Below are positions 1 to 44,301 of a stretch of DNA of 44,301 nt, one piece after another. Under the pieces are notes generated by a model. That model saw nothing but the letters and a program-made list of their open reading frames with translations, did no database searches and was not told the origin of the DNA. The stretch's first letter is position 1. Each line of letters starts with the position of its first letter. A program made the position numbers and the translations under genes. The stretch is from IMG/VR virus record IMGVR_UViG_3300029224_000129, positions 1 through 44,301 of that record. One strand, given 5' to 3'. Source of the DNA: a virus (lineage: Duplodnaviria > Caudoviricetes).

Positions 1-654
1 TTAGTGCTCTTTTAAATGCCAGTTAGAAATTATTCTTTGAAATGTCCTGCTGCTTGGTAACTCAACCTCTTTCTGGGCGCTTTTTTCGGCTACTTTTTTT
101 CGTAAATTTGTAGCGGTTATATTTGAGTTTTTAGATAGTATTTGATCGATCAGTATTGCCTGCTCTGGGTGGCAAGATACATAAGAATTTGTGCATCCTT
201 TATACTGGGGAATTAAACCATCTCGACCAGCCTCCTTGTAAGCTTTTTTCCAACTCCAAAGTGTCGATTTATTACACTTTGCAATTATGTCATACACCCA
301 ATCAGGAACGCCTTCGATCGTCTTCATCGGGAATTTCTCGGCAATAGATTCAACTACCAACCTTACCCCACCACCATTTTGGTTCTTATAGTGTTCGATG
401 GCCCCTAAAATGAGCATACGAGCATCGGCAACTGCCTGCTGTTTGGACTGATTATTTTGTTTTGAGTGATTCTGGACTGATTTAAATCTGTCTGTTCTAG
501 ACTTTTTCGCCAGTTCAGAATTATGTTTAGTCACGCTTGAAAGGACTAAATCATAGCTTTCGCGAGCAGATTGAAGCTCTGCAGATGCACGATCAAAGGT
601 CGTTTGAGCCTCTTCAAGAAACGCCCTGGCTTCTTCGATATCATCCGTCTGCAT
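1..654 (-). CDS. Coiled-coil N-terminus plus Mu-transposase-like DNA-binding (I-beta/gamma) domains, no catalytic core
   Basis: GGAG 9 nt before ATG 654; motifs KSTLWSWKKAY..GLIPQYKG and ELPSSRTFQRII resemble SSTVYNWLKA..ALAPRYAG and KLPSVKTLQRRI of the resident MuA; TAA at 1-3. Confidence 0.7.
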   Translation of the reverse strand: MQTDDIEEARAFLEEAQTTFDRASAELQSARESYDLVLSSVTKHNSELAKKSRTDRFKSVQNHSKQNNQSKQQAVADARMLILGAIEHYKNQNGGGVRLVVESIAEKFPMKTIEGVPDWVYDIIAKCNKSTLWSWKKAYKEAGRDGLIPQYKGCTNSYVSCHPEQAILIDQILSKNSNITATNLRKKVAEKSAQKEVELPSSRTFQRIISNWHLKEH

Positions 655-856
655 GGCCAACATCTCCATTTTGTTCCATCCGCCGCGACAACAATATATG
701 TCGCATAGCAACAGATGCGAGGCCCTCTATGACCGAAATTAATTGCTCACGGGAAAATCCTTTGAGACGATCTTCATTTAAAGTCTGCGTTAAAGGTGGC
801 CTTGGGTTATAAAAATTGACGACGACAACGTTGTTGTTTTGAGTATCTGAAGACAT
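641..856 (-). CDS. Small hypothetical protein directly downstream of the c4-like RNA (icd-like position)
   Basis: GGAG-AAAAAAAC-ATG at 856; RBS overlaps the c4 target site; stop overlaps the next gene's start region. Confidence 0.6.
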   Translation of the reverse strand: MSSDTQNNNVVVVNFYNPRPPLTQTLNEDRLKGFSREQLISVIEGLASVAMRHILLSRRMEQNGDVGHADG

Positions 857-864
857 GTTTTTTT

Positions 865-884
865 CTCCAATGGCAGCTTTTGAA
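865..884 (-). promoter_or_regulatory. Downstream c4 target site overlapping the RBS
   Basis: Minus strand TTCAAAAGCTGCCATTGGAG is complementary to UCCAGUGGCAG-UUUUGAA in the RNA. Confidence 0.75.
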
Positions 885-913
885 GGCTGGGTCGTTGGCA
901 ATCGGAGCCAACA

Positions 914-992
914 TCCGGGAGTTCAAAACTGCCACTGGACAGCCCTGCGACCTTTAGGCTTTCGCCCTGTACATACGTCGCAAGCTCCCGGA
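914..992 (-). ncRNA. c4-type (c4-2-like) antisense RNA
   Basis: Terminal stem UCCGGGAG/CUCCCGGA, inner stem UGCGAC/GUCGCA, GGGC-GAAA-GCCU tetraloop hairpin, antisense tract CCAGUGGCAGUUUUGAA with two cognate targets nearby. Confidence 0.8.
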
Positions 993-1066
993 CTAAACCA
1001 AATTATGAAGACAAACGCTTTTAAGTGCTTGTCAGAAATAAGGCTATCAGTTGACATGTCCGAATT

Positions 1067-1083
1067 CAGTGGTGGGTTTTGAA
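1067..1083 (-). promoter_or_regulatory. Upstream c4 target site
   Basis: Minus strand TTCAAAACCCACCACTG complementary to the antisense tract; lies just downstream of a putative -10 TATAAG (1094-1099). Confidence 0.7.
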
Positions 1084-1094
1084 GCCCAACACAC

Positions 1095-1330
1095 TTATAC
1101 ACCTGAAATAATCACCTCGCCAGCCTTCATTGATTTCTTGCCCCCACCCACGCTATAGGTCGTCTCCACGGCCTTTATATTGGCCCAGATGAACAGTTCT
1201 CTGACCTCTGGGACGTCATTTAAAGACACTATAAAAAACGGCCTTTAAGGCCCTTTAAAAGGGTTGCTAAATCTTCGCGTTTGCCGCCGATGTACGGCGC
1301 GATGGGGTTTATTTTAGGGATGGTATGCAT
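1095..1330 (-). pseudogene. Dam-like (D12 class) N6-adenine methyltransferase relic with internal deletion and frameshift
   Basis: MHTIPKINPIAPYIGGKR fused to EDLATLLKGLKGRF; after a T6 run, the other frame reads IVSLNDVPEVRELF..VETTYSVGGG..AGEVIISGV*; central motifs absent. Confidence 0.85.
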
Positions 1331-1488
1331 TAGAGAATCCGATAATACTAAGCCCGCCTGTGGCTACAGGTGGCGGGTCGGCCAGAGCTAGGCCAGTTCT
1401 GATCGAGGGCGTTATCCGCGCCCGGTTTGAGGTGTTAGAGCACCTCATCCCCCGCCCGGCCACTATGGCCGAACGGAGAGGGTTTTTG

Positions 1489-1683
1489 CTATTTTTTTGG
1501 TAGCTTTTTTGCGGCTTTAATACGGCCTGAAACCTTGATGTATTTCGGCGCATCCTTAAACCCCGGCGATAGTTTTTTTAAAGCCGCTGTCAAGGCATCG
1601 AGCTGATCTTGCAAGGCCTCATTTTGTTCGTGAACCGTAACTTCGGCGATAATTTTTTTCCGTTTTTCACTGTTGATACTCAT
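1489..1683 (-). CDS. Small hypothetical protein after the tail fibre
   Basis: TAATG stop/start coupling with the fibre gene at 1683. Confidence 0.6.
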   Translation of the reverse strand: MSINSEKRKKIIAEVTVHEQNEALQDQLDALTAALKKLSPGFKDAPKYIKVSGRIKAAKKLPKK

Positions 1684-2900
1684 TAGTCTGTCCATCCCCA
1701 TACATGTGGTTTAATACGTTGTTCTTTGCCATTGAGTGTTTTGATTTCGATGATCGGGGTTGTTCCGGTCCCCATGGCAGAAGACGCCACGGCTTCGATC
1801 CAGCGGTAAGTGCCATCAAAGTCACCCAAATCCGTAAGCGTAGCCACCTCTTTGGTCACGTTGTTGTCGTTGGAAAGGGTCACCGTTAAGTCAGTGCCTA
1901 AAACGGCGGTGCCGCTTACGTCTTTCCATAAAAATATCATGGTTTGTTCGACGGGCTGTATGTCGGGGGCGGGAATGTTCGGAGAAACAAGGGTCATGTC
2001 GGCGGGTACATCGGTCGTATAAAAAACACATTCAGAACAAGACCATGGGTTTCCTGAGGCCCCCGACATCTTAACCCAGATGTATCGGTACGGCGTGGTG
2101 GTTACAAACCCTGATAGCTTCTCGAAAATGACTTGAGAGCTGCTGCTATCAACAATCGATCCAGACCCAAGATTTGTGGCGGTGGCGGGGTCGTTTATAT
2201 TACTGCCCAACAAGCTAAATGTAATGGCGGCACCGTTCACGTTGGAAAATCCAGCATTAGTTGACGACCACAACTTTATCCCTGTAACCGTCTTGGCACC
2301 CCCCAAGCCCAGATCTTGCCCAATATGGGCGGCGGCCGCCCCGCCCAATAGAACCGCCGACGTGGCGGTGGTATATGCTGTTACGCCATCAAAAGCCGCC
2401 CCTACGCCGCCCGCATCTATCATGTCACCAATCGCCGCAGCAGGCGTGTAGATTGTTTGAGGCCCCGCATTTGTGTAAAAGTTGTCGGTCGCATCATATG
2501 TTTCGTTGGTGGATGTTGCCCCCCATTCATCGGTCAACAATTCCCATAATTGACCATTCACCCAAGCCCCGCTTGATTTTGAAGTGGAAAGCAGCATTTG
2601 CATGGTGTTCCAAGCAATCCTGCGCTTTTGTAAATCCGTTGCCCCAAGAACGACACTGGCATCAATCATGAATTGGATGGCTTGGTTAACCTGTGTGTCG
2701 TCGGCTCCATCAAGTGACATTCCACTGGCGTGGATAATATTCACAAGCTCTTCTTGAACCCGATTGCACCATTCATAACCGGGTTGTGTAGCTTGTAGGC
2801 CTATTGCCGGATCTCCTTTAGTGAAAAATCCACCCGGTCCTTCAGCAGCAGGCAGGGCGGGTTTGTCGGCAACATTTGTTGCTCTTGTGACACGTTGCAT
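1683..2900 (-). CDS. Tail fibre / receptor-binding protein with discoidin (F5/8-type)-like domain
   Basis: N-terminal Mu/P2-type fibre anchor (GFFTKGDP..AT...EWCNRVQEELVNII..SG.SLD); C-terminal AAFDG..IGQDLG..LLGSN..PYRYIWV pattern; follows gp48. Confidence 0.8.
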   Translation of the reverse strand: MQRVTRATNVADKPALPAAEGPGGFFTKGDPAIGLQATQPGYEWCNRVQEELVNIIHASGMSLDGADDTQVNQAIQFMIDASVVLGATDLQKRRIAWNTMQMLLSTSKSSGAWVNGQLWELLTDEWGATSTNETYDATDNFYTNAGPQTIYTPAAAIGDMIDAGGVGAAFDGVTAYTTATSAVLLGGAAAAHIGQDLGLGGAKTVTGIKLWSSTNAGFSNVNGAAITFSLLGSNINDPATATNLGSGSIVDSSSSQVIFEKLSGFVTTTPYRYIWVKMSGASGNPWSCSECVFYTTDVPADMTLVSPNIPAPDIQPVEQTMIFLWKDVSGTAVLGTDLTVTLSNDNNVTKEVATLTDLGDFDGTYRWIEAVASSAMGTGTTPIIEIKTLNGKEQRIKPHVWGWTD

Positions 2901-2903
2901 AAG

Positions 2904-3485
2904 TTAATCTCCTGAATATGTAAAAATGACTTGCGTATGAGCGGGTTTATCTTCGGTGATGACACATTCCAAAATTGTATTTCCCCAATCCCTCAAAGGG
3001 TCCTCACAGCTGCTTTCGCAGGTGGAATTTATGATGGTCGTAGCCGCCGCATTGGTCTGCCATACAAAAACCCAGCCTTCGTCTGTCACGGCATCTTCAC
3101 AGGTGTCTTCGCATGTAAATGGCGTGAATTCGGTGATGGTGATGACGTAACCAAGGGCCTTGGCTAGATTGATAAAATATGGTCTGGATTGACCGCCGCG
3201 TGATATCCACTTTGCATGCACCATGGCTTGACGTTCACGGATGGTATCGGCACTGGCTGAACACTTGCCGGGCAGGCCGACTTCTTTTTCCCATTCTGGC
3301 AACAGTTCAAACGCGGTGCGGGGATCTGCTTCATCAAGCAAATCCGTTGCCCGACGATGCACATCGGCCAGCATTTCTGCCCCAGCGTGGAGCAAGCCCC
3401 TTAAAACCGATCCGGTTTCCGCCACCCAAGCCGAACCGGAAGGCAAAAGCTGTATAAGTTGGGATAAATAGGCAACGGCATTCAT
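2904..3485 (-). CDS. Baseplate protein, Mu gp48 / YmfQ (DUF2313) family
   Basis: LLPSGSAW, EADPRTA.ELLPEWE, KPAHT motifs; position after baseplate J. Confidence 0.9.
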   Translation of the reverse strand: MNAVAYLSQLIQLLPSGSAWVAETGSVLRGLLHAGAEMLADVHRRATDLLDEADPRTAFELLPEWEKEVGLPGKCSASADTIRERQAMVHAKWISRGGQSRPYFINLAKALGYVITITEFTPFTCEDTCEDAVTDEGWVFVWQTNAAATTIINSTCESSCEDPLRDWGNTILECVITEDKPAHTQVIFTYSGD

Positions 3486-14358: not shown

Positions 14359-14817
14359 TTACGTCTTCGCGGCGGCTTTCTTGTGGGCCGCTTTGAGTTC
14401 TTTGTTAAGCGTGGCAATTGCCTTGTCGGCCGCCGTCACTTTGGCTTCAGCAGCGGTCGCCCGCTTTTCAGCATCAGCAACTTTAGCCTCGGCATCCGTT
14501 GCCCGTTTTTCAGCATCAGCAACTTTATCTTCGGCATCCGTTGCACGCCGTTCAGCATGAGCGGTTTTTGCTTCGGCATCCGTTGCCCGCTTTTCAGCAG
14601 CAGTTACCTTTTGAACAGAAGCATCGGCGGTGGCCTCTGCATCAGCCGTTGCATTTTCGTCAACGAAGACGACGATCAGGTTGGGCTCAGCTTCGAGCTC
14701 TTTCATTTGATCAGCGTCGAAATCATCAAGGTCATAGTCTGTCGCCTCAGCTGGGTGAGCCACGCCACAACGGCGGAACCCATCAACCTTGGAAACGATG
14801 CGAATTTTCTTAGCCAT
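14359..14817 (-). CDS. HI1506/FluMu gp35-like protein with coiled-coil repeats
   Basis: GFRRCG.AH, F...Q...L.AEP.L.V N-terminal domain after the capsid gene. Confidence 0.82.
   Translation of the reverse strand: MAKKIRIVSKVDGFRRCGVAHPAEATDYDLDDFDADQMKELEAEPNLIVVFVDENATADAEATADASVQKVTAAEKRATDAEAKTAHAERRATDAEDKVADAEKRATDAEAKVADAEKRATAAEAKVTAADKAIATLNKELKAAHKKAAAKT
14422..14610 (-). repeat. About 4.5 tandem 42-bp (14-aa) repeats
   Basis: KVTAAEKRATDAEA/KTAHAERRATDAED/KVADAEKRATDAEA/KVADAEKRATAAEA/KVTAADK. Confidence 0.9.
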
Positions 14818-38488: not shown

Positions 38489-38662
38489 ACTCTAAATCCA
38501 AGTGTCTAAATCACCAAAATGGCCCGTACTCCAAAACCCAAACGTTTTTGATAAATAGCCCATTAAAGGCCCATTAAAAGGCTGAACTCCGGGGTTTGTC
38601 CCACGTTATCCCGCCCAGTCCCACGATATCCCGGATACTCTAATACCTAGTGTCCCCTAACA
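38489..38662 (-). repeat. Prophage left end (attL) with L1/L2/L3-like transposase sites
   Basis: ACTCTAATACCTAGTGTC (38637-54) vs ACTCTAAATCCAAGTGTC (38489-506), 15/18 identical; weaker copy at 38528; GTCCCACG(T/A)TATCCCG twice at 38598 and 38618; terminal CA at 38661-62. Confidence 0.8.
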
Positions 38663-39639
38663 TTGGCGAGCGAAACGGTCAGCTCTTTCAAGTAATCCGG
38701 CGAATATTTTCGATAAATTCGGCGCACCGTACCGGGGCTTGTTGCTGTCAAATCGCTTATCTGATCCACGGAATATCCATCCTCTGCCAGCCATGAAATA
38801 ACCGAGTGTTTCAGAGTGTGAGGGGTGGCCCATGAAAGCTCTGCTTCTTTGGCCGCATCGTTGAAGGCGTGTTTTATGTTTTTGATAGGCTTGCCAAAAT
38901 ATTCGATCACATAGTTGGAGCTCGCTTCTTTCTTCATTAATGTCAAAGCTTCGATCACATCCTTCCCAACGGGAACGACTGTCCTGCGTTTTTTCGTTAT
39001 CGCCAGCTCTGGGTCTCTGAAGTCCAGTCGCCCACGTTTTAGGTTCACGCGATCCCACGTCAAACCGAGGATTGCACCCTTTCGCGCTCCCGTGTTCATG
39101 GCGATCAAAATATATAGGCGCAAGTGCATCGACTTTGCTTTGTCGAATATCGCACTGGCTTGCTCTCGCGTTAAAAACCGTTCTCTGGGTGGACGTTTTG
39201 CCGGAACTTCTATGAACGGAGCCTTTTCTATCCATCCCGCTTGCAGAGCCATTTTTAACGTGGTGCGAAGCTCGAATAATTCTTCTCGCAAAGCTCCCGG
39301 TGCTGATTTTCTTTTTAACCAATACTCTTTTACAAATTGTGGAGTTATTCGGTCCGGTCTGATTGGTCCGAAATGTTTTTTCAACCCACTGTGAAAGAAC
39401 GGCGTCCTTTTGGCCCTGTCTTTCCCCGAAGCCTCCAAGTCTGCCAGACGAATGTCTAGCAGAGCTGAAACCGTTGGTGACTTTGGTGTGTTTTTTGCCG
39501 CAAGGTATTCGCTTAGGAAGCATTGAGCCGCTCCCTCATCCGAAGTTCCCGTGCTGTAGACTTCCCGTCCATCTCGGATGTACCAATTGTCTTTCCGGGT
39601 AATTCTGACAATGCGTGCAGGTTTTCTTGGGCGTGACAT
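38647..39639 (-). CDS. int: Tyrosine recombinase/integrase; 3' end supplied by the Mu terminus
   Basis: TGARKGAILGL.W, TKKRR.VVP, PHTLKHS, RIYRKYSPDYL. Confidence 0.92.
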   Translation of the reverse strand: MSRPRKPARIVRITRKDNWYIRDGREVYSTGTSDEGAAQCFLSEYLAAKNTPKSPTVSALLDIRLADLEASGKDRAKRTPFFHSGLKKHFGPIRPDRITPQFVKEYWLKRKSAPGALREELFELRTTLKMALQAGWIEKAPFIEVPAKRPPRERFLTREQASAIFDKAKSMHLRLYILIAMNTGARKGAILGLTWDRVNLKRGRLDFRDPELAITKKRRTVVPVGKDVIEALTLMKKEASSNYVIEYFGKPIKNIKHAFNDAAKEAELSWATPHTLKHSVISWLAEDGYSVDQISDLTATSPGTVRRIYRKYSPDYLKELTVSLANVRGH

Positions 39640-39815
39640 GAAATGCGCTCCAAATATTCACTCAGAAATTCTTGGGAAATGCGGATCGCATACCCGGGCA
39701 TATCTTGATATGACCTGATTTTTCCTTTGTGAACAAGTTGGCGAACAGTCTCATACGAACATCCGAGAAGAGTTGCGACCTGTCGAAGAGTGAAGTATGG
39801 CCCCTTATTTTTCAC
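39513..39815 (-). CDS. xis: Excisionase-like HTH_17 protein overlapping the int start
   Basis: FTLRQVA.LLGCSYETVR.LV..GKI, IRI; GAGG before GTG 39815. Confidence 0.8.
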   Translation of the reverse strand: MKNKGPYFTLRQVATLLGCSYETVRQLVHKGKIRSYQDMPGYAIRISQEFLSEYLERISCHAQENLHALSELPGKTIGTSEMDGKSTARELRMRERLNAS

Positions 39816-39906
39816 TGTGGCTTCCTCATGGTGAGAAAGCATCAAGTGATCATCCGTAGTTTTATGGGCTTGAGGATGGAGGGGTGGGTGTGTATTATGT
39901 TGATCA

Positions 39907-40500
39907 TCAAACGGCCTCATCGGTCTTTCCTTTCGTTAGATTGGTGGAAACTGCTTCAACAGTTTCAGCGTTGTTTTTTGGTTTAGTGGAGCGGCTCAGG
40001 TCTTTTTGATCTGAGCCGTTTTTCTGTGCGGTTGTGTCGCGACCGAAGAAGAACCTATCTATTATGGTGCGCTTGTAATTACGTTCTCCGGGAAATGTTT
40101 CAATAAGATCTTGTTGAAGCTGTTCTCTGTTCGAGCGATTAGGAAGCGCAGATTTTAGCTCGCGCCTAGCCTCATCAAGATTTATTTCAATGTCTCCCAT
40201 CACATTTTCAAGATAATGGATGCCTTGGATTAAAGGAGCTAATGTTCTGAGAGGAGCTGTTTTAAAATGTTGCTTGTCTTCATCATCTTCACAGACTACT
40301 GAGAAAACTTCACTAGGTGATAGGTTTAAGACACTCACAATTTTTGCCAGCATGGGAAGCGGAGGAAATTGACCATTAACCTCACCAGCTTGTTCATACT
40401 TAGCAATCGAATTGATATTTGCCCCAACAAGCGCAGACAACTGCTTACGGGTTAAACCCTCTGCAGCTCTGCCATTCTTGAGTAGTTTTCCTAAGCTCAT
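39907..40500 (-). CDS. XRE family HTH regulator
   Basis: LG.LLK..R...GLTR.QL..L.G....I.KYE. Confidence 0.88.
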   Translation of the reverse strand: MSLGKLLKNGRAAEGLTRKQLSALVGANINSIAKYEQAGEVNGQFPPLPMLAKIVSVLNLSPSEVFSVVCEDDEDKQHFKTAPLRTLAPLIQGIHYLENVMGDIEINLDEARRELKSALPNRSNREQLQQDLIETFPGERNYKRTIIDRFFFGRDTTAQKNGSDQKDLSRSTKPKNNAETVEAVSTNLTKGKTDEAV

Positions 40501-40610
40501 TTTGTACCAATAATATCAAAAGTTTCTAAAATATAACTCAAACTAATATTATTAATATCTCCATATTTAGTGAATGTCAACTCCACTACTATATACAGAC
40601 ATAAAATTAA

Positions 40611-40644
40611 AAAGAGGCCCAAGATATGTTATCTGGGCCTCTTT
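40611..40644 (-). terminator. Intrinsic terminator after the 312-aa XRE gene
   Basis: AAAGAGGCCC(A)AGATA-TGT-TATCTGGGCCTCTTT hairpin with a T-tract on the minus strand. Confidence 0.75.
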
Positions 40645-40671
40645 ATGTTTTGCGTAAAATCACGGGCATGG

Positions 40672-41610
40672 TTAGAGGAAGTCACCGCTCAAAAAGCTTT
40701 TCTTTTCGCTGGGCTCTTCACGCTTTGGAAATTCGTCAACATCCTCGAAATCATAACCATTATTATTGATCGTGAGCGTTCTAAGGTGAGGACGGATCAG
40801 TGGCATAAAGTTTTCATGCTCTCCCCAACTGGCACCATTTCCAAGGAATTCTCCTCGAATTGGTCGTTCGATGCCATATTCTTTTCTAAGCTCATTGGCA
40901 ACAGTGATTAGGGCTTTGCTGTCGAGGGCATATAGATCAATCCCAAACATAGCGGTGTCAATGATACGCTCCTCAATGTTTCCGCAATATGCCTGAGCTT
41001 CGTCTGAGCTCTTACGGAACATATCGAGGATGCTGTCAGCCGTTTTACAATCGCCTTGATACAGTTCGCGCTCAACAGCCAAGGCTAGGAGCTCTTCTGG
41101 TTCACAGTACTTGAGAACCGAACGAATTTCTTCGATCAATGCAATAGCGCCACGCTGGGCACCTTCAAATTCATGAATGCGCATGTTGTCTAGGACAGTA
41201 AGCAGTCCATTAAAAGAATTCATTTGATCATTTTCGTTGGCTGGCTCGGAGGATTCCGCAATATCGGAATTGACGTTTAAAACATCCTCCGCGAAAGTCT
41301 CGGCGTCATTCGCGGAGGCCTGTGGTTCTGCGCTTTCTGTGGTTTCCGTGACTTTCGCGGAGGCTTCTTGAACGTCTTCACCGTTCAGCACCCAATTAAT
41401 CGAAACGTCCAAGTGCTCGCAGATGGTTTGAAGGCGTGTTGTGTTCGGGTCCATGTCGCCACGTTCATACTTTTCGATTGTGCTGGCGGGAATGCCAGTA
41501 GCTTCGGCAAGTGCCTTGCGAGTGAAGTCGGCATCCGTGCGAGCCGCCTTAAGACGGTCGGCAATTGTCATGCCTTCATGTGTTGGAATGTCGCGTGTTG
41601 ATTTAGTCAT
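40672..41610 (-). CDS. XRE family HTH regulator with acidic linker and unknown C-terminal domain
   Basis: IADRLKAAR...TR.ALA..TGI..STI.KYERG..P....L..I...L.VS..W. Confidence 0.88.
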   Translation of the reverse strand: MTKSTRDIPTHEGMTIADRLKAARTDADFTRKALAEATGIPASTIEKYERGDMDPNTTRLQTICEHLDVSINWVLNGEDVQEASAKVTETTESAEPQASANDAETFAEDVLNVNSDIAESSEPANENDQMNSFNGLLTVLDNMRIHEFEGAQRGAIALIEEIRSVLKYCEPEELLALAVERELYQGDCKTADSILDMFRKSSDEAQAYCGNIEERIIDTAMFGIDLYALDSKALITVANELRKEYGIERPIRGEFLGNGASWGEHENFMPLIRPHLRTLTINNNGYDFEDVDEFPKREEPSEKKSFLSGDFL

Positions 41611-41709
41611 GATTTAAGTTCCTTTTGCCCTGCGAAAAAGTCAGGCGACATTCAGGGCAGGGGGAACCTGTTGTGCCTGTTTTGTAAAATTCTGGGGTGT
41701 GGTTTCTGG

Positions 41710-43212
41710 TCATTGGAGCGTTTCTCCATTCGAAGCATGACCAGAAGGGGGGGGAGGTCGATATCGTGACCTCGAATTCGTGTCCTGTTTCGGGACAGTT
41801 GTCGTTGTAGTGTGCTTCATAGGGGCGCTTCGCTTGAGAGAGGTATCAGAGCAGGCCTCAAGGGACTCCGTAGCGGCCCTCAGGGCATCGGCATCAATCC
41901 GGTCACGGTGGATGCGCCGGGCAAAGCCCACGGCCTCCTCAAGGCTATTTTCGCGGACTAAGGTGGTAAAATCACCTGTATATCCTTCAACAATGACACA
42001 AGGTTCCATGCGCGGATTGAAGTTAGGCATTGGTCGCGTAATGGCGACAACTACATTTTCAGTGCGTGAACCGTCACTGTCAGGCCGTTCTTCACGGGTC
42101 TTTTTCTCCGTAACTCGCCAAATCAATCGTCCATCAATAGTTTGAATGAGCATCAGCTTTTGCCCATTAGCCTTTAATTCAGAACGGAAGCGGCGCATTT
42201 CACCGAGTGGATGGAAAAACTTGAGCGGACCTTCTAGAACTTCAACCAGTTCGCCGTTCTCATCTTCGCGTGTTTTGACCTCTCCGGTTTCAGGGTCAAA
42301 TTGTGCACGCCCACCTGATACTTGATGAAACAATTCGGCAAATTCTTCATCCGTTAAAAGATTAAATTCAGTGGGCTTGAAGACATATTTAACAACTTCA
42401 TTGGGTTTCTTAATTTTGCTGTCATTCACATAACCTTTTGGAAAAAAGCCTTTGGAAAATTCTAGGAATTCTGCCCACTTCTTTTTGCCAAGGTAACGAT
42501 TGCACCGGAACAAAACATGACTGTGCATATTCATCATGGCCGTGTTGTTATCATTACGATGAATGGTGTTTTCAACGTTGTAATATTCAATGGAAATGCC
42601 CAAGCGTTTCAGCTTTGGGTGAGCCGCAAATTTAGACATACGCCGGGTATGAGTTTTGTGGTTTTTTCGATAGTCAAACAGGGGACACCAGCCACCTGAA
42701 ATGACAAGCATACGGAGCCGCCCGGGTCGGGTTACATCAAACATAAACCGCACATGTGACAGCATGCCGTGAACATTCTTAGATTGCTGTATTGGAATTA
42801 GATTGCAATTACGATAGTCCGGTAGTGCTTCAACTTCACCAGAAACAAGGCCAACTATTGCAAGGTCTCGGCCTGTGCGTCCACGAATGCCCATACGCTC
42901 TAATCGCAAAACAACATCTTCCGATTGTTCGCGAAGTCTTCGTTTGTTAATTTGGCTGTCTATATGGTGGTCTCTGGAAACTTCAGAGCCAACCAATTGT
43001 TCCCATATTTCTTTTGATGAAATTTCATTCTTCCCAGCATTCCATCCAAAGAAATCTTTAGCCGTGTTTTCGCGGGGCATTGGAAATTTGCGTTTTGCTT
43101 TAGGCTTGTCGTTCTTAGTACCTATTTTTTTCCAATACGTGGCTTTACGCTCTTCAGTCTCGGCCCTCTTATCAGCTTCAAACGCGGCCCAATTCATGTT
43201 GTTGTTGATCAT
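41710..43212 (-). CDS. rep: HUH rolling-circle replication initiator (Rep)
   Basis: HUH motif MNMHSHVLF and YxxK motif EVVKYVFKP; preceding CNLIP and hydrophobic motif LRMLVIS. Confidence 0.72.
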   Translation of the reverse strand: MINNNMNWAAFEADKRAETEERKATYWKKIGTKNDKPKAKRKFPMPRENTAKDFFGWNAGKNEISSKEIWEQLVGSEVSRDHHIDSQINKRRLREQSEDVVLRLERMGIRGRTGRDLAIVGLVSGEVEALPDYRNCNLIPIQQSKNVHGMLSHVRFMFDVTRPGRLRMLVISGGWCPLFDYRKNHKTHTRRMSKFAAHPKLKRLGISIEYYNVENTIHRNDNNTAMMNMHSHVLFRCNRYLGKKKWAEFLEFSKGFFPKGYVNDSKIKKPNEVVKYVFKPTEFNLLTDEEFAELFHQVSGGRAQFDPETGEVKTREDENGELVEVLEGPLKFFHPLGEMRRFRSELKANGQKLMLIQTIDGRLIWRVTEKKTREERPDSDGSRTENVVVAITRPMPNFNPRMEPCVIVEGYTGDFTTLVRENSLEEAVGFARRIHRDRIDADALRAATESLEACSDTSLKRSAPMKHTTTTTVPKQDTNSRSRYRPPPPSGHASNGETLQ

Positions 43213-43567
43213 TGGCTGGCCCTCTTATTGGCCCGGGCAATGGCAATGTCAGAAATTAACTTTGCGGCAACGCTTCCAATATGCTGGCAAGTTTCAAGGT
43301 GTCGCGAAACATCAACGCACGGAGCACTTTGAGACACCCGGGGCGCGGCCCCGGACCCCGGGATATTTGAAACAACAAAGCAAGTTTCTTGGAGGGAGCG
43401 AACGTCACAGATCGAGCTGGTGGAAAGATCGAAAGAGAATGCTTTGCGCCGAGTCCTTGTCTTGCTATAATCGCGACACGGAACAGCCGGGGACGGCGAT
43501 GGCCGTACAACGAAGCAAGCGGCGGGCAGAAATGTTCCGCCGTTTCTCGTTTGTGTAAGGATGCTTT

Positions 43568-43801
43568 TCAATGCATTGCCCCCCGGTCAATTTGGGACAA
43601 CAGCTCAGACATTCTTGTTTTTTCTTGGGTGTATTCCTCTCCGTAAACTTCGGTCCAAATCAGGTCAATTCGGTTCAGCACATAGAGTAATTGTTGGGCA
43701 TGGCCTTTGCATTCAGCGAATGCCAGTTGCTCCATAACCACATCGGCTTGAAGCCTCCATAAAGCGTAAATGGTTGCCATTTTTGACAAAGAGGTGCTCA
43801 T
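43568..43801 (-). CDS. Hypothetical protein
   Basis: GGAGG RBS, ATGA coupling with the upstream gene. Confidence 0.6.
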   Translation of the reverse strand: MSTSLSKMATIYALWRLQADVVMEQLAFAECKGHAQQLLYVLNRIDLIWTEVYGEEYTQEKTRMSELLSQIDRGAMH

Positions 43802-44301
43802 GCGCGCCTCCCGGCCAATTTAATGACTTCTCGAATATATTTTGAAACGGTATGTGGGTGGATGTTTTGCTGTCTGGCAATTTGCTTATTGCTTTGACCC
43901 GCCCAATAAAGTCTGCCGATTTCACGAATACGGCGTTGACGACGTTTGGCGTCAATCAAGCGTTTAAATCGTGTGACAGCGAATTCTAAATTTTGCCAAG
44001 GCACACCAAGGCTGTCCGCAACGGTTTTTAAAGCTTCACGGTTCTTTACAAAATTATTGGTGACACCATCACGGCGGAGCTTGCGATAACCAACACGGCC
44101 AAGAATATGAAATTCAGCTTTGTGCTTTTCACTACGTTCATGCTCTCGTTGTTTATTCGCATCAGAATTGCGATGTGCCTTGGCGGCGGCGATCCGTGCG
44201 ATTTGCTCAAACTTGGAACCATTGGCACCAAACCATTCAGCAACCTCAATCGGCATTTCAATTGTGAGTGAAACATAACCGCGGCGTGGATGATCAGACA
44301 T
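43798..44301 (-). CDS. Protein with C-terminal HTH (LuxR/sigma-r4-like); may start beyond the window
   Basis: IGRLY..GQSNKQIARQ.NIH..TVSKYI. Confidence 0.7.
   Translation of the reverse strand: MSDHPRRGYVSLTIEMPIEVAEWFGANGSKFEQIARIAAAKAHRNSDANKQREHERSEKHKAEFHILGRVGYRKLRRDGVTNNFVKNREALKTVADSLGVPWQNLEFAVTRFKRLIDAKRRQRRIREIGRLYWAGQSNKQIARQQNIHPHTVSKYIREVIKLAGRRA

Follow-up and report, generated by a model that had tools for sequence, protein, structure and literature searches.

A stand-alone, catalysis-free module derived from Mu-type transposases at the right end of Mu-like prophages

Genes and features of the window

The window, that is, the whole stretch of DNA analyzed here, is an entire virus record of 44,301 bases, which begins at the stop codon of a 217-aa gene and ends at the start codon of another gene. 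Most of it is a minus-strand Mu-like prophage with genes for a repressor, Ner, MuA and the head and tail proteins. In the following list and in the text, RC1/HS6-type and Mu-type are labels of this analysis, assigned by the motif at the first catalytic Asp. The features discussed below, all on the minus strand, are:

1..654, minus strand: 217-aa ORF (ATG at 654, TAA at 1-3), a long N-terminal helix followed by a transposase-derived bipartite helix-turn-helix (HTH), with no catalytic domain; probably the last prophage gene, judging from its position in relatives G001, G002 and G066
4..456, minus strand: residues 67-217, an I-beta-like and an I-gamma-like domain joined by a linker, as in RC1/HS6-type Mu-like transposases (hhalign 99.7%, E 3.7e-27; profile scores)
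457..654, minus strand: residues 1-66, predicted amphipathic helix and putative coiled coil, in which 14 residues, absent from all other family members, are inserted in frame; not alignable to transposases (alignment)
664..667, minus strand: ribosome-binding site GGAG, 9 nt before the ATG (sequence)
641..856, minus strand: 71-aa leader ORF, family unassigned, whose stop lies within the first codons of the 217-aa gene (ORF list)
867..884, minus strand: predicted antisense target on the downstream side, which could pair with the RNA's 3' arm and overlaps the leader ORF's GGAG (865-868); 0 of 2000 shuffles, 1 of 500 in a second test, loop-target covariation
905..993, minus strand: sRNA-Xcc1-like (c4-type) structured RNA; score 27.2 bits (cut-off 53), E 0.032, full model 1-87 covered, fold z -2.86
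1067..1084, minus strand: weaker upstream copy of the antisense target; 74 of 2000 shuffles, 22 of 500 in the second test
1095..1330, minus strand: remnant of a D12-class adenine methylase gene with an internal deletion of ~560 bp; the intact G001 gene (PF02086) matches it at both ends with 76-79% DNA identity
34083..36206, minus strand: the phage's own intact MuA, Mu/DDE_2 type, 707 aa; matches to DDE_2, HTH_Tnp_Mu_1 and HTH_Tnp_Mu_2, 67% identity to the MuA of G001
38490..38662, minus strand: attL, with TG as its terminus at 38662; transposase sites are predicted at 38638-38654 and 38490-38506 (alignment with the left end of the complete relative G001)

Using a matrix derived from 12 right ends, we found that window positions 38490-38506 gave the top match in the window (20.3 bits), and that nothing notable, and no end-like site, was present upstream of the 217-aa gene. 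Because the 5-mer of the left flank plus TG was absent from positions 1-3000, attR must lie outside that interval; the window's own attR probably falls outside the record, one contig running 252 bases beyond position 1. The 217-aa protein is encoded on a contig of 258,688 bp. A seawater metagenome, possibly the source, is the one sequencing run listed with this DNA, and no RNA run is listed with it.

Several other observations concern the rest of the window. A tyrosine-integrase element extends from 38647 on, and the left end of the prophage lies inside the final codons of the tyrosine integrase, whose stop codon is now in phage DNA (38647-39639 and beyond). Positions 38663-44301 belong to a separate integrative element, which carries several HTH genes as well as a 500-aa ORF that had no Pfam or PHROG match. 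Finally, three to four copies of a 42-bp repeat occupy 14423-14590, within a 152-aa ORF (14359-14817).

A transposase-derived protein without a catalytic domain

A sequence-only reading of this DNA had described the gene as an intact ORF with a good ribosome-binding site, which holds, and the start codon at 654 is also backed by the family alignment. The same reading placed motifs of the MuA end-binding domains in the C-terminal ~130 aa. The motifs are indeed there (STLWSWKK, LIPQYKG and LPSSRTFQRII, on invariant family columns), and the extent of the homology proved slightly longer, ~150 aa. When a profile of six short members was compared with a profile of 14 full-length transposases by hhalign, the match was restricted to residues 67-217 and nothing aligned before residue 67. 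Residues 67-217 align to Mu-type transposases without large gaps, and the protein stops directly after the last helix. The invariant family columns (T131, W135, G143, L147, P149, P200, S201, T204 and R207) were found in both recognition helices, whereas the inter-domain linker of the window protein carries a Cys where five of the seven aligned members carry Arg. A match to PHROG 310 (transposase) was also obtained (E 9.4e-12); Pfam returned only sub-threshold HTH families for this protein and no match to PF02316, the N-terminal I-alpha domain. In line with the proposal that an unrelated coiled coil replaces the N-terminal HTH, residues 1-66 did not align to transposases and the predicted helix spans residues 3-93 (DSSP). 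The divergence from the phage's own MuA was borne out as well, the best BLASTP match to it having an E value of 0.003.

The I-beta-gamma domains of Mu bind the phage ends and I-alpha binds the enhancer (passages of PMC3562280), on which basis the matching part corresponds to the end-binding region. Compared with active Mu-type DDE transposases, the protein possesses the I-beta/I-gamma end-binding domains and lacks both I-alpha and the DDE core.

The predicted structure (pLDDT 82, pTM 0.50) consists of the long helix and two small helical domains. The top structural matches over residues 69-217, the Pax5/6 paired domain (Pax6, Z 7.3) and the N-terminal domains of CAST TnsB (residues 35-168, VIA; Z 6.7), were middling, and at E 0.05 and Z 6.7-7.3 they indicate a common two-HTH layout and not membership in either group. 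Foldseek gave no PDB match at E 0.001, and a sequence search of the PDB gave nothing below E 0.29. A homodimer prediction scored 0.02, which counts neither for nor against oligomerization. In a separate comparison, Campylobacterota clusters of 258 and 346 aa, which belong to no family, resembled the 217-aa model (TM 0.50); on these models they may be further stand-alone transposase fragments.

The paired-like fold and the fast divergence from all transposases (22-36% identity) would suit a neofunctionalized transcription regulator, whose bipartite HTH binds a new phage or host operator in a role unrelated to transposition. Against such a regulator, the domain boundaries coincide with the end-binding region, with the protein ending right after the last helix, and no candidate operator was found in a scan for end-like sites only. 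We regard a regulator of this kind as credible but somewhat unlikely.

A family of stand-alone relatives next to attR

An exhaustive search returned 24 matches: the query, seven proteins of 199-233 aa and 16 of 476-785 aa. Among the 23 non-self matches, the seven short stand-alone clusters ranked above or among the 16 long transposases. Truncated homologs, whose absence the sequence-only reading had named as refuting its proposal, thus exist, and neither of its two other refuting outcomes was seen in relatives. Word-based searches retrieved the query alone, or nothing among longer proteins. No stand-alone relative was found in cultured phages or plasmids, and no viral loci were found for P0003-P0006. 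The relatives belong to Alphaproteobacteria. Genomic context covers the relatives G001, G002 and G066 (the last for P0007, via a cluster mate) and leaves out P0004, P0005, P0006 and P0010; the contigs of P0005 and P0010 measure 841 bp and no more than 1998 bp, respectively.

In all three relatives with downstream DNA, the gene is the last gene and attR follows 92-107 bp after its stop codon. In G001 the homolog lies behind an intact D12 methylase gene (PF02086), 92 bp from attR, and the 5-bp duplication matches the left flank. In G002, where the distance is 96 bp, the left end that fits the 5-bp duplication belongs to a Mu-type prophage and lies on a different contig. The G066 gene (L031:1390-2103), which encodes a 237-aa variant, overlaps the stop of the methylase gene and ends 107 bp before attR; the 5-bp duplication there matches a left end preceding an RC1-type transposase. 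This variant is without the long N-terminal helix but contains an additional I-gamma-like repeat (PF09039 at 198-225). Because attR comes so soon after the stop, there is no room for a DDE core in any of the three relatives. A DDE-encoding continuation just beyond position 1, which would have made the gene a simple nonsense pseudogene, is therefore not what these relatives show, the window's own flank being outside the record. The 217-aa protein is a real, catalysis-free, transposase-derived module conserved in frame and position.

The conserved slot is the one between methylase and attR, and not the antirepressor slot by which the gene had been defined before: both relatives with upstream DNA (G001 and G066) have no such leader, and the gene lies directly behind the D12 methylase gene. 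Overall, the sequence-only reading was right on the anatomy of the protein and largely right on the RNA discussed below, and its antirepressor slot is not the conserved position of the family.

The gene was found in 2 of 401 genomes and in 3 of 14 mapped prophages; being this rare, it must be dispensable. In other prophages the methylase-attR slot carries varied cargo. The GC content of the gene was 41, 48 and 51%, compared with 51, 58 and 64% for the respective phages, that is, 9-13 points lower in all three genomes. Both the varied cargo and the low GC content, as of accessory cargo, also fit the transcription regulator considered above.

Selection was examined as the sequence-only reading had suggested. 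The G001/G002 pair gave dN 0.50, dS 1.78 and a dN/dS of ~0.28, with an excess of third-position changes; it was the only usable pair, as dS was saturated in the two of three pairs that include the window gene. For MuA of G001 and G002, dN was 0.26 and dS 1.53. With dN of 0.48-0.63, versus 0.26-0.36 for MuA, the gene shows roughly double the evolutionary rate of the transposase. These data bear on the possibility that the gene is a slowly decaying, functionless transposase remnant carried next to attR. Its rare and patchy distribution, and the decay of the adjoining methylase gene in the window, are what such a relic would predict; on the other hand, the frames are open at 26-42% identity across the seven short clusters, the core members share a non-transposase N-terminus, and there are the third-position excess and the dN/dS of 0.28. 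We consider a relic quite improbable.

Mapped prophages and tRNA neighbors

Of 22 prophage candidates screened, eight were dropped because the methylase landmark was missing from the piece examined. With G001 and G002-C70 added, 16 prophages were available, 14 of which gave a left end, a right end and a duplication (chosen by eye among candidates), while G215 and G220c gave none that was settled. In these mapped prophages both transposase types share similar ends, roughly YCAAAAYCAWGTGGCGCGCTACA at the right.

Eleven of the 14 mapped Mu-like prophages, with transposases of both types, lie 39-245 bp from the 3' end of a tRNA gene (one of them a T-arm remnant): those of G001, G002 (C70/C60 and C171/C19), G066, G151 (two), G111, G018, G309, G196 and G199. 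The prophages of G273, G281 and G120 are not adjacent to tRNA genes. All three prophages with the gene are within this group, at 39-105 bp, as might be expected if the protein selected targets and directed the phage to tRNA genes. Nevertheless, eight of the 11 mapped prophages without the gene are also near tRNA genes, by which a selector acting in cis is largely refuted; we rejected this role, which is hardly credible.

A predicted antisense leader upstream of the gene in the window

No Rfam model matched at its gathering score anywhere in the window. Between 600 and 1800, sRNA-Xcc1 (RF02221) was the best of six Rfam matches, below its gathering score, and Rfam C4 (RF01695) gave no match at E values up to 10. 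Xcc1 is a relative of c4, and Rfam lists no clan for sRNA-Xcc1. The antisense targets were judged by shuffle tests on the RNA boundaries defined by Rfam; a free-energy scan of the RNA arm was unconvincing, as 10 sites in the genome were better than the local ones. The description of the locus as a c4 cassette thus holds for the antisense architecture, with a target over the ribosome-binding site (0 of 2000 shuffles) and covariation, and not for the RNA family, given the missing RF01695 match and a score below the Xcc1 cut-off. On the strength of the complementary targets, the RNA is predicted to be an sRNA-Xcc1-like antisense leader, and it is not Rfam C4.

The RNA pattern matched nine viral loci, seven of which match Xcc1, six of them over the cut-off; none was found in the 401 genomes. 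In 10 rows including the window, compared by eye, the loop TTTTGA(A/G) pairs with a downstream (T/C)TCAAA, through A-U in three rows and G-C in seven, and L091 has both forms. RNAalifold showed two-sided changes in eight of 16 pairs, the outer stem being fixed by the search pattern itself. Neither Pfam and PHROGs (86-aa form and residues 6-71) nor the Atlas (residues 6-71) matched the 71-aa leader ORF to Icd or to other proteins; its identification as Icd found no support. No sigma-70 promoter was found in 1-1700. In G002, the 35 bases seen upstream of the gene are similar to the final part of the leader ORF in the window (0 of 2000 shuffles), and the rest of the upstream piece was not found in that genome; from this similarity, G002 may share the leader of the window.

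Two additional observations were made on this region and this RNA. The non-coding stretch upstream of the methylase (window 1277-1471 versus L001:8970-9110 of G001) is 76% identical and has a hairpin-like core of 31 identical bases, though the methylase gene of the window is broken. At L092 (G404), in a Mu-like phage, the same RNA subtype is flanked by genes for head morphogenesis and a protease and precedes two ORFs that belong to no known family.

Behind the RNA at the nine loci we found genes for Rha (one), Bro-N (two), KilA-N (two), HNH (one), a weak match to Mu gp27 (one) and a protein with no match (one), plus the derivative at L096 described below. Antirepressor-type genes (Rha, Bro-N, KilA-N) thus follow the leader at five of nine loci, and in P1 the C4 RNA and Icd regulate Ant (excerpts of PMC8201110), which together recommend the earlier idea of a novel antirepressor, released by the c4-type leader and inactivating or displacing the repressor. 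However, the protein had no match to an antirepressor family in Pfam or PHROGs, and G001 and G066 carry the gene without the leader. In Mu the enhancer overlaps operators. The enhancer-binding domain, I-alpha (passages of PMC3562280), is the one that this protein does not have. We conclude that the 217-aa protein is probably not an antirepressor, a role that appears very unlikely.

The sequence-only reading had suggested looking for homologs with the same truncated architecture behind c4 RNAs. Among the loci with this leader, one carries a further DDE-less transposase derivative, which is differently built. At L096:383-925 (minus strand; provirus G403), the same RNA subtype is followed by a 154-aa ORF and then by a 181-aa protein composed of I-alpha-like and I-gamma-like pieces, most like the RC1-type transposase of that phage itself (65.7 bits). 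The gene ends in a stop with no DDE sequence after it, it is not beside a methylase gene, and no attR was found at L096. This derivative, a single case, may be a deletion remnant.

Origin of the module

The family profile scored RC1 at 40.7, MuM16-1 at 37.4, HS6 at 32.4 and G002-C171 at 31.5 bits, compared with 22.5 for the phage's own MuA, 13.7 for G002-C70, 10.4 for MP22, 8.8 for G001, 3.1 for ThpS-P1, 2.3 for SfMu and 2.2 for Vibrio 1.156.O. By these scores the family is more like RC1/HS6-type transposases than like the phage's own MuA. It should be noted that the long matches of the exhaustive search score higher than RC1, but they had been chosen by the query itself. In the 401 unselected genomes, the profile was found at 15 places in 14 genomes: two stand-alone genes, 12 RC1/HS6-type frames (11 assigned by a visible W..D[SA][TS] motif and one judged by an upstream NPDxW motif) and one Mu-type frame, whereas DDE_2 gave 33 Mu-type matches in 29 of the same genomes. 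The I-beta domain is ~15 residues longer, as in the RC1 type; by hand count, the distance from the conserved Arg to Trp is 56 residues here, 55 in RC1 and P0012, and ~40 in the own MuA. In a tree of 36 rows, the seven core members grouped together (92/90), the deeper split (65/62) left the donor unsettled, and P0010 was placed elsewhere. Among the carriers of the gene, G066 alone has it beside an RC1-type enzyme, and G002 contains prophages of both transposase types.

We infer from these comparisons that the module arose in an RC1-type phage and then spread with the methylase-attR module. A copy of the I-beta-gamma region of an RC1/HS6-type transposase would have been the source, with loss of the I-alpha and DDE parts; an N-terminal helix, which may oligomerize the protein, would have been gained; and the module would have spread together with the methylase-attR module into phages with a Mu-type MuA.

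A possible inhibitor of Mu-type transposition

Taking all of this together, our tentative interpretation, held at a little under even odds, sees in the gene a conserved derivative of a Mu-type transposase's end-binding region, devoid of catalysis, and in its product a competitive end-binding inhibitor of Mu-type transposition. The precedents for this interpretation are the IS1 InsA, IS3 OrfA and P-element KP and 66-kDa repressors described below. The protein would occupy Mu-type end sites and block assembly of the transpososome, so that replicative transposition of its own phage would be damped, as would that of co-resident Mu-like prophages. Own and foreign Mu-like phages are both possible targets because both transposase types use similar end motifs. 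Made from behind the methylase gene, the inhibitor would likely appear late and could help halt replication before packaging. Behind the antisense leader of the window it would, on the model of P1, stay off by default and be produced for a short time; a default-off leader fits poorly with a role in lysogen maintenance. The Cys in the linker, the rarity of the gene, the unsettled donor and the lack of an end-like site upstream of the gene likewise count against the inhibitor. The 14-aa insertion in the window keeps the frame, which is consistent with an inhibitor, whereas the fast evolution of the gene fits changed specificity or relaxed selection as well.

An oligomerization helix, as predicted here, joined to an end-binding module could also make a helper, one that brings together or shields the two prophage ends or promotes assembly, with no inhibition, and the ends of a Mu prophage have been reported to lie close together (excerpts of PMC3820752). 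Such a helper would hardly be expected to be absent from 11 of 14 mapped prophages, or, in G000, G001 and G002, to resemble the resident MuA less than it does the other transposase type; we consider it very improbable indeed. A broader form of the inhibitor interpretation, which includes L096, is that on more than one occasion Mu-like phages have turned catalysis-free DNA-binding parts of Mu-type transposases into separate domesticated genes, two of them under c4-type antisense control, to serve as anti-transposition weapons against rival transposable phages. This generalization seems unlikely; if true, it would represent phage-versus-phage interference acting on transpososome assembly.

Relation to known systems and significance

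The closest known counterparts of residues 67-217 are the I-beta/I-gamma domains of MuA, above all those of the RC1/HS6/MuM16-1 type (Rhodobacter phage RC1, Pseudoalteromonas phage HS6), which align throughout and have the same longer I-beta domain. Compared with MuA, the 217-aa protein lacks I-alpha, the DDE core and the C-terminal domains, has a new N-terminal helix, and is encoded by a separate gene at the opposite end of the genome. The leader region resembles P1/P7 immI (c4-icd-ant) and sRNA-Xcc1 (RF02221) in having a structured RNA, a loop with complementary sites both upstream and across the following ribosome-binding site, a small ORF and an overlapping gene. Unlike P1/P7 immI, it has no Rfam C4 match, its small ORF is not recognizably Icd, and its second gene is outside the antirepressor families.

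Truncated-transposase repressors are already known from insertion sequences and P elements. InsA, OrfA, KP and the 66-kDa protein come from the element's own transposase gene, through frameshift-free translation, splicing or internal deletion. IS1 InsA and IS3 OrfA bind the element ends and inhibit transposition (excerpts of PMC13181058), and the P-element KP (207 aa) and 66-kDa proteins are likewise repressors of transposition (excerpts of PMC7776569). The 217-aa protein resembles them in that the DNA-binding part is kept and catalysis is lost, and also in its similar size and putative oligomerization helix. It differs from them in being an independent gene, probably not derived from the transposase gene of its own element (own MuA 22.5 bits versus RC1 40.7), since it resembles the resident transposase less than the other type; inhibition is here a proposal. 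In open-access full text, as distinct from subscription papers and supplements, we found no report of a stand-alone truncated-transposase repressor in a transposable phage, and passages of PMC12724379 contain nothing on this gene. The family could be present, unnamed, in the supplementary gene tables of surveys of Mu-like prophages such as PMC8705779.

The rarity of the gene and the inferred nature of its function limit the weight of the finding. If the protein does block the assembly of phage ends, Mu-type replication would gain a new point of control, through which co-resident transposable phages might compete.
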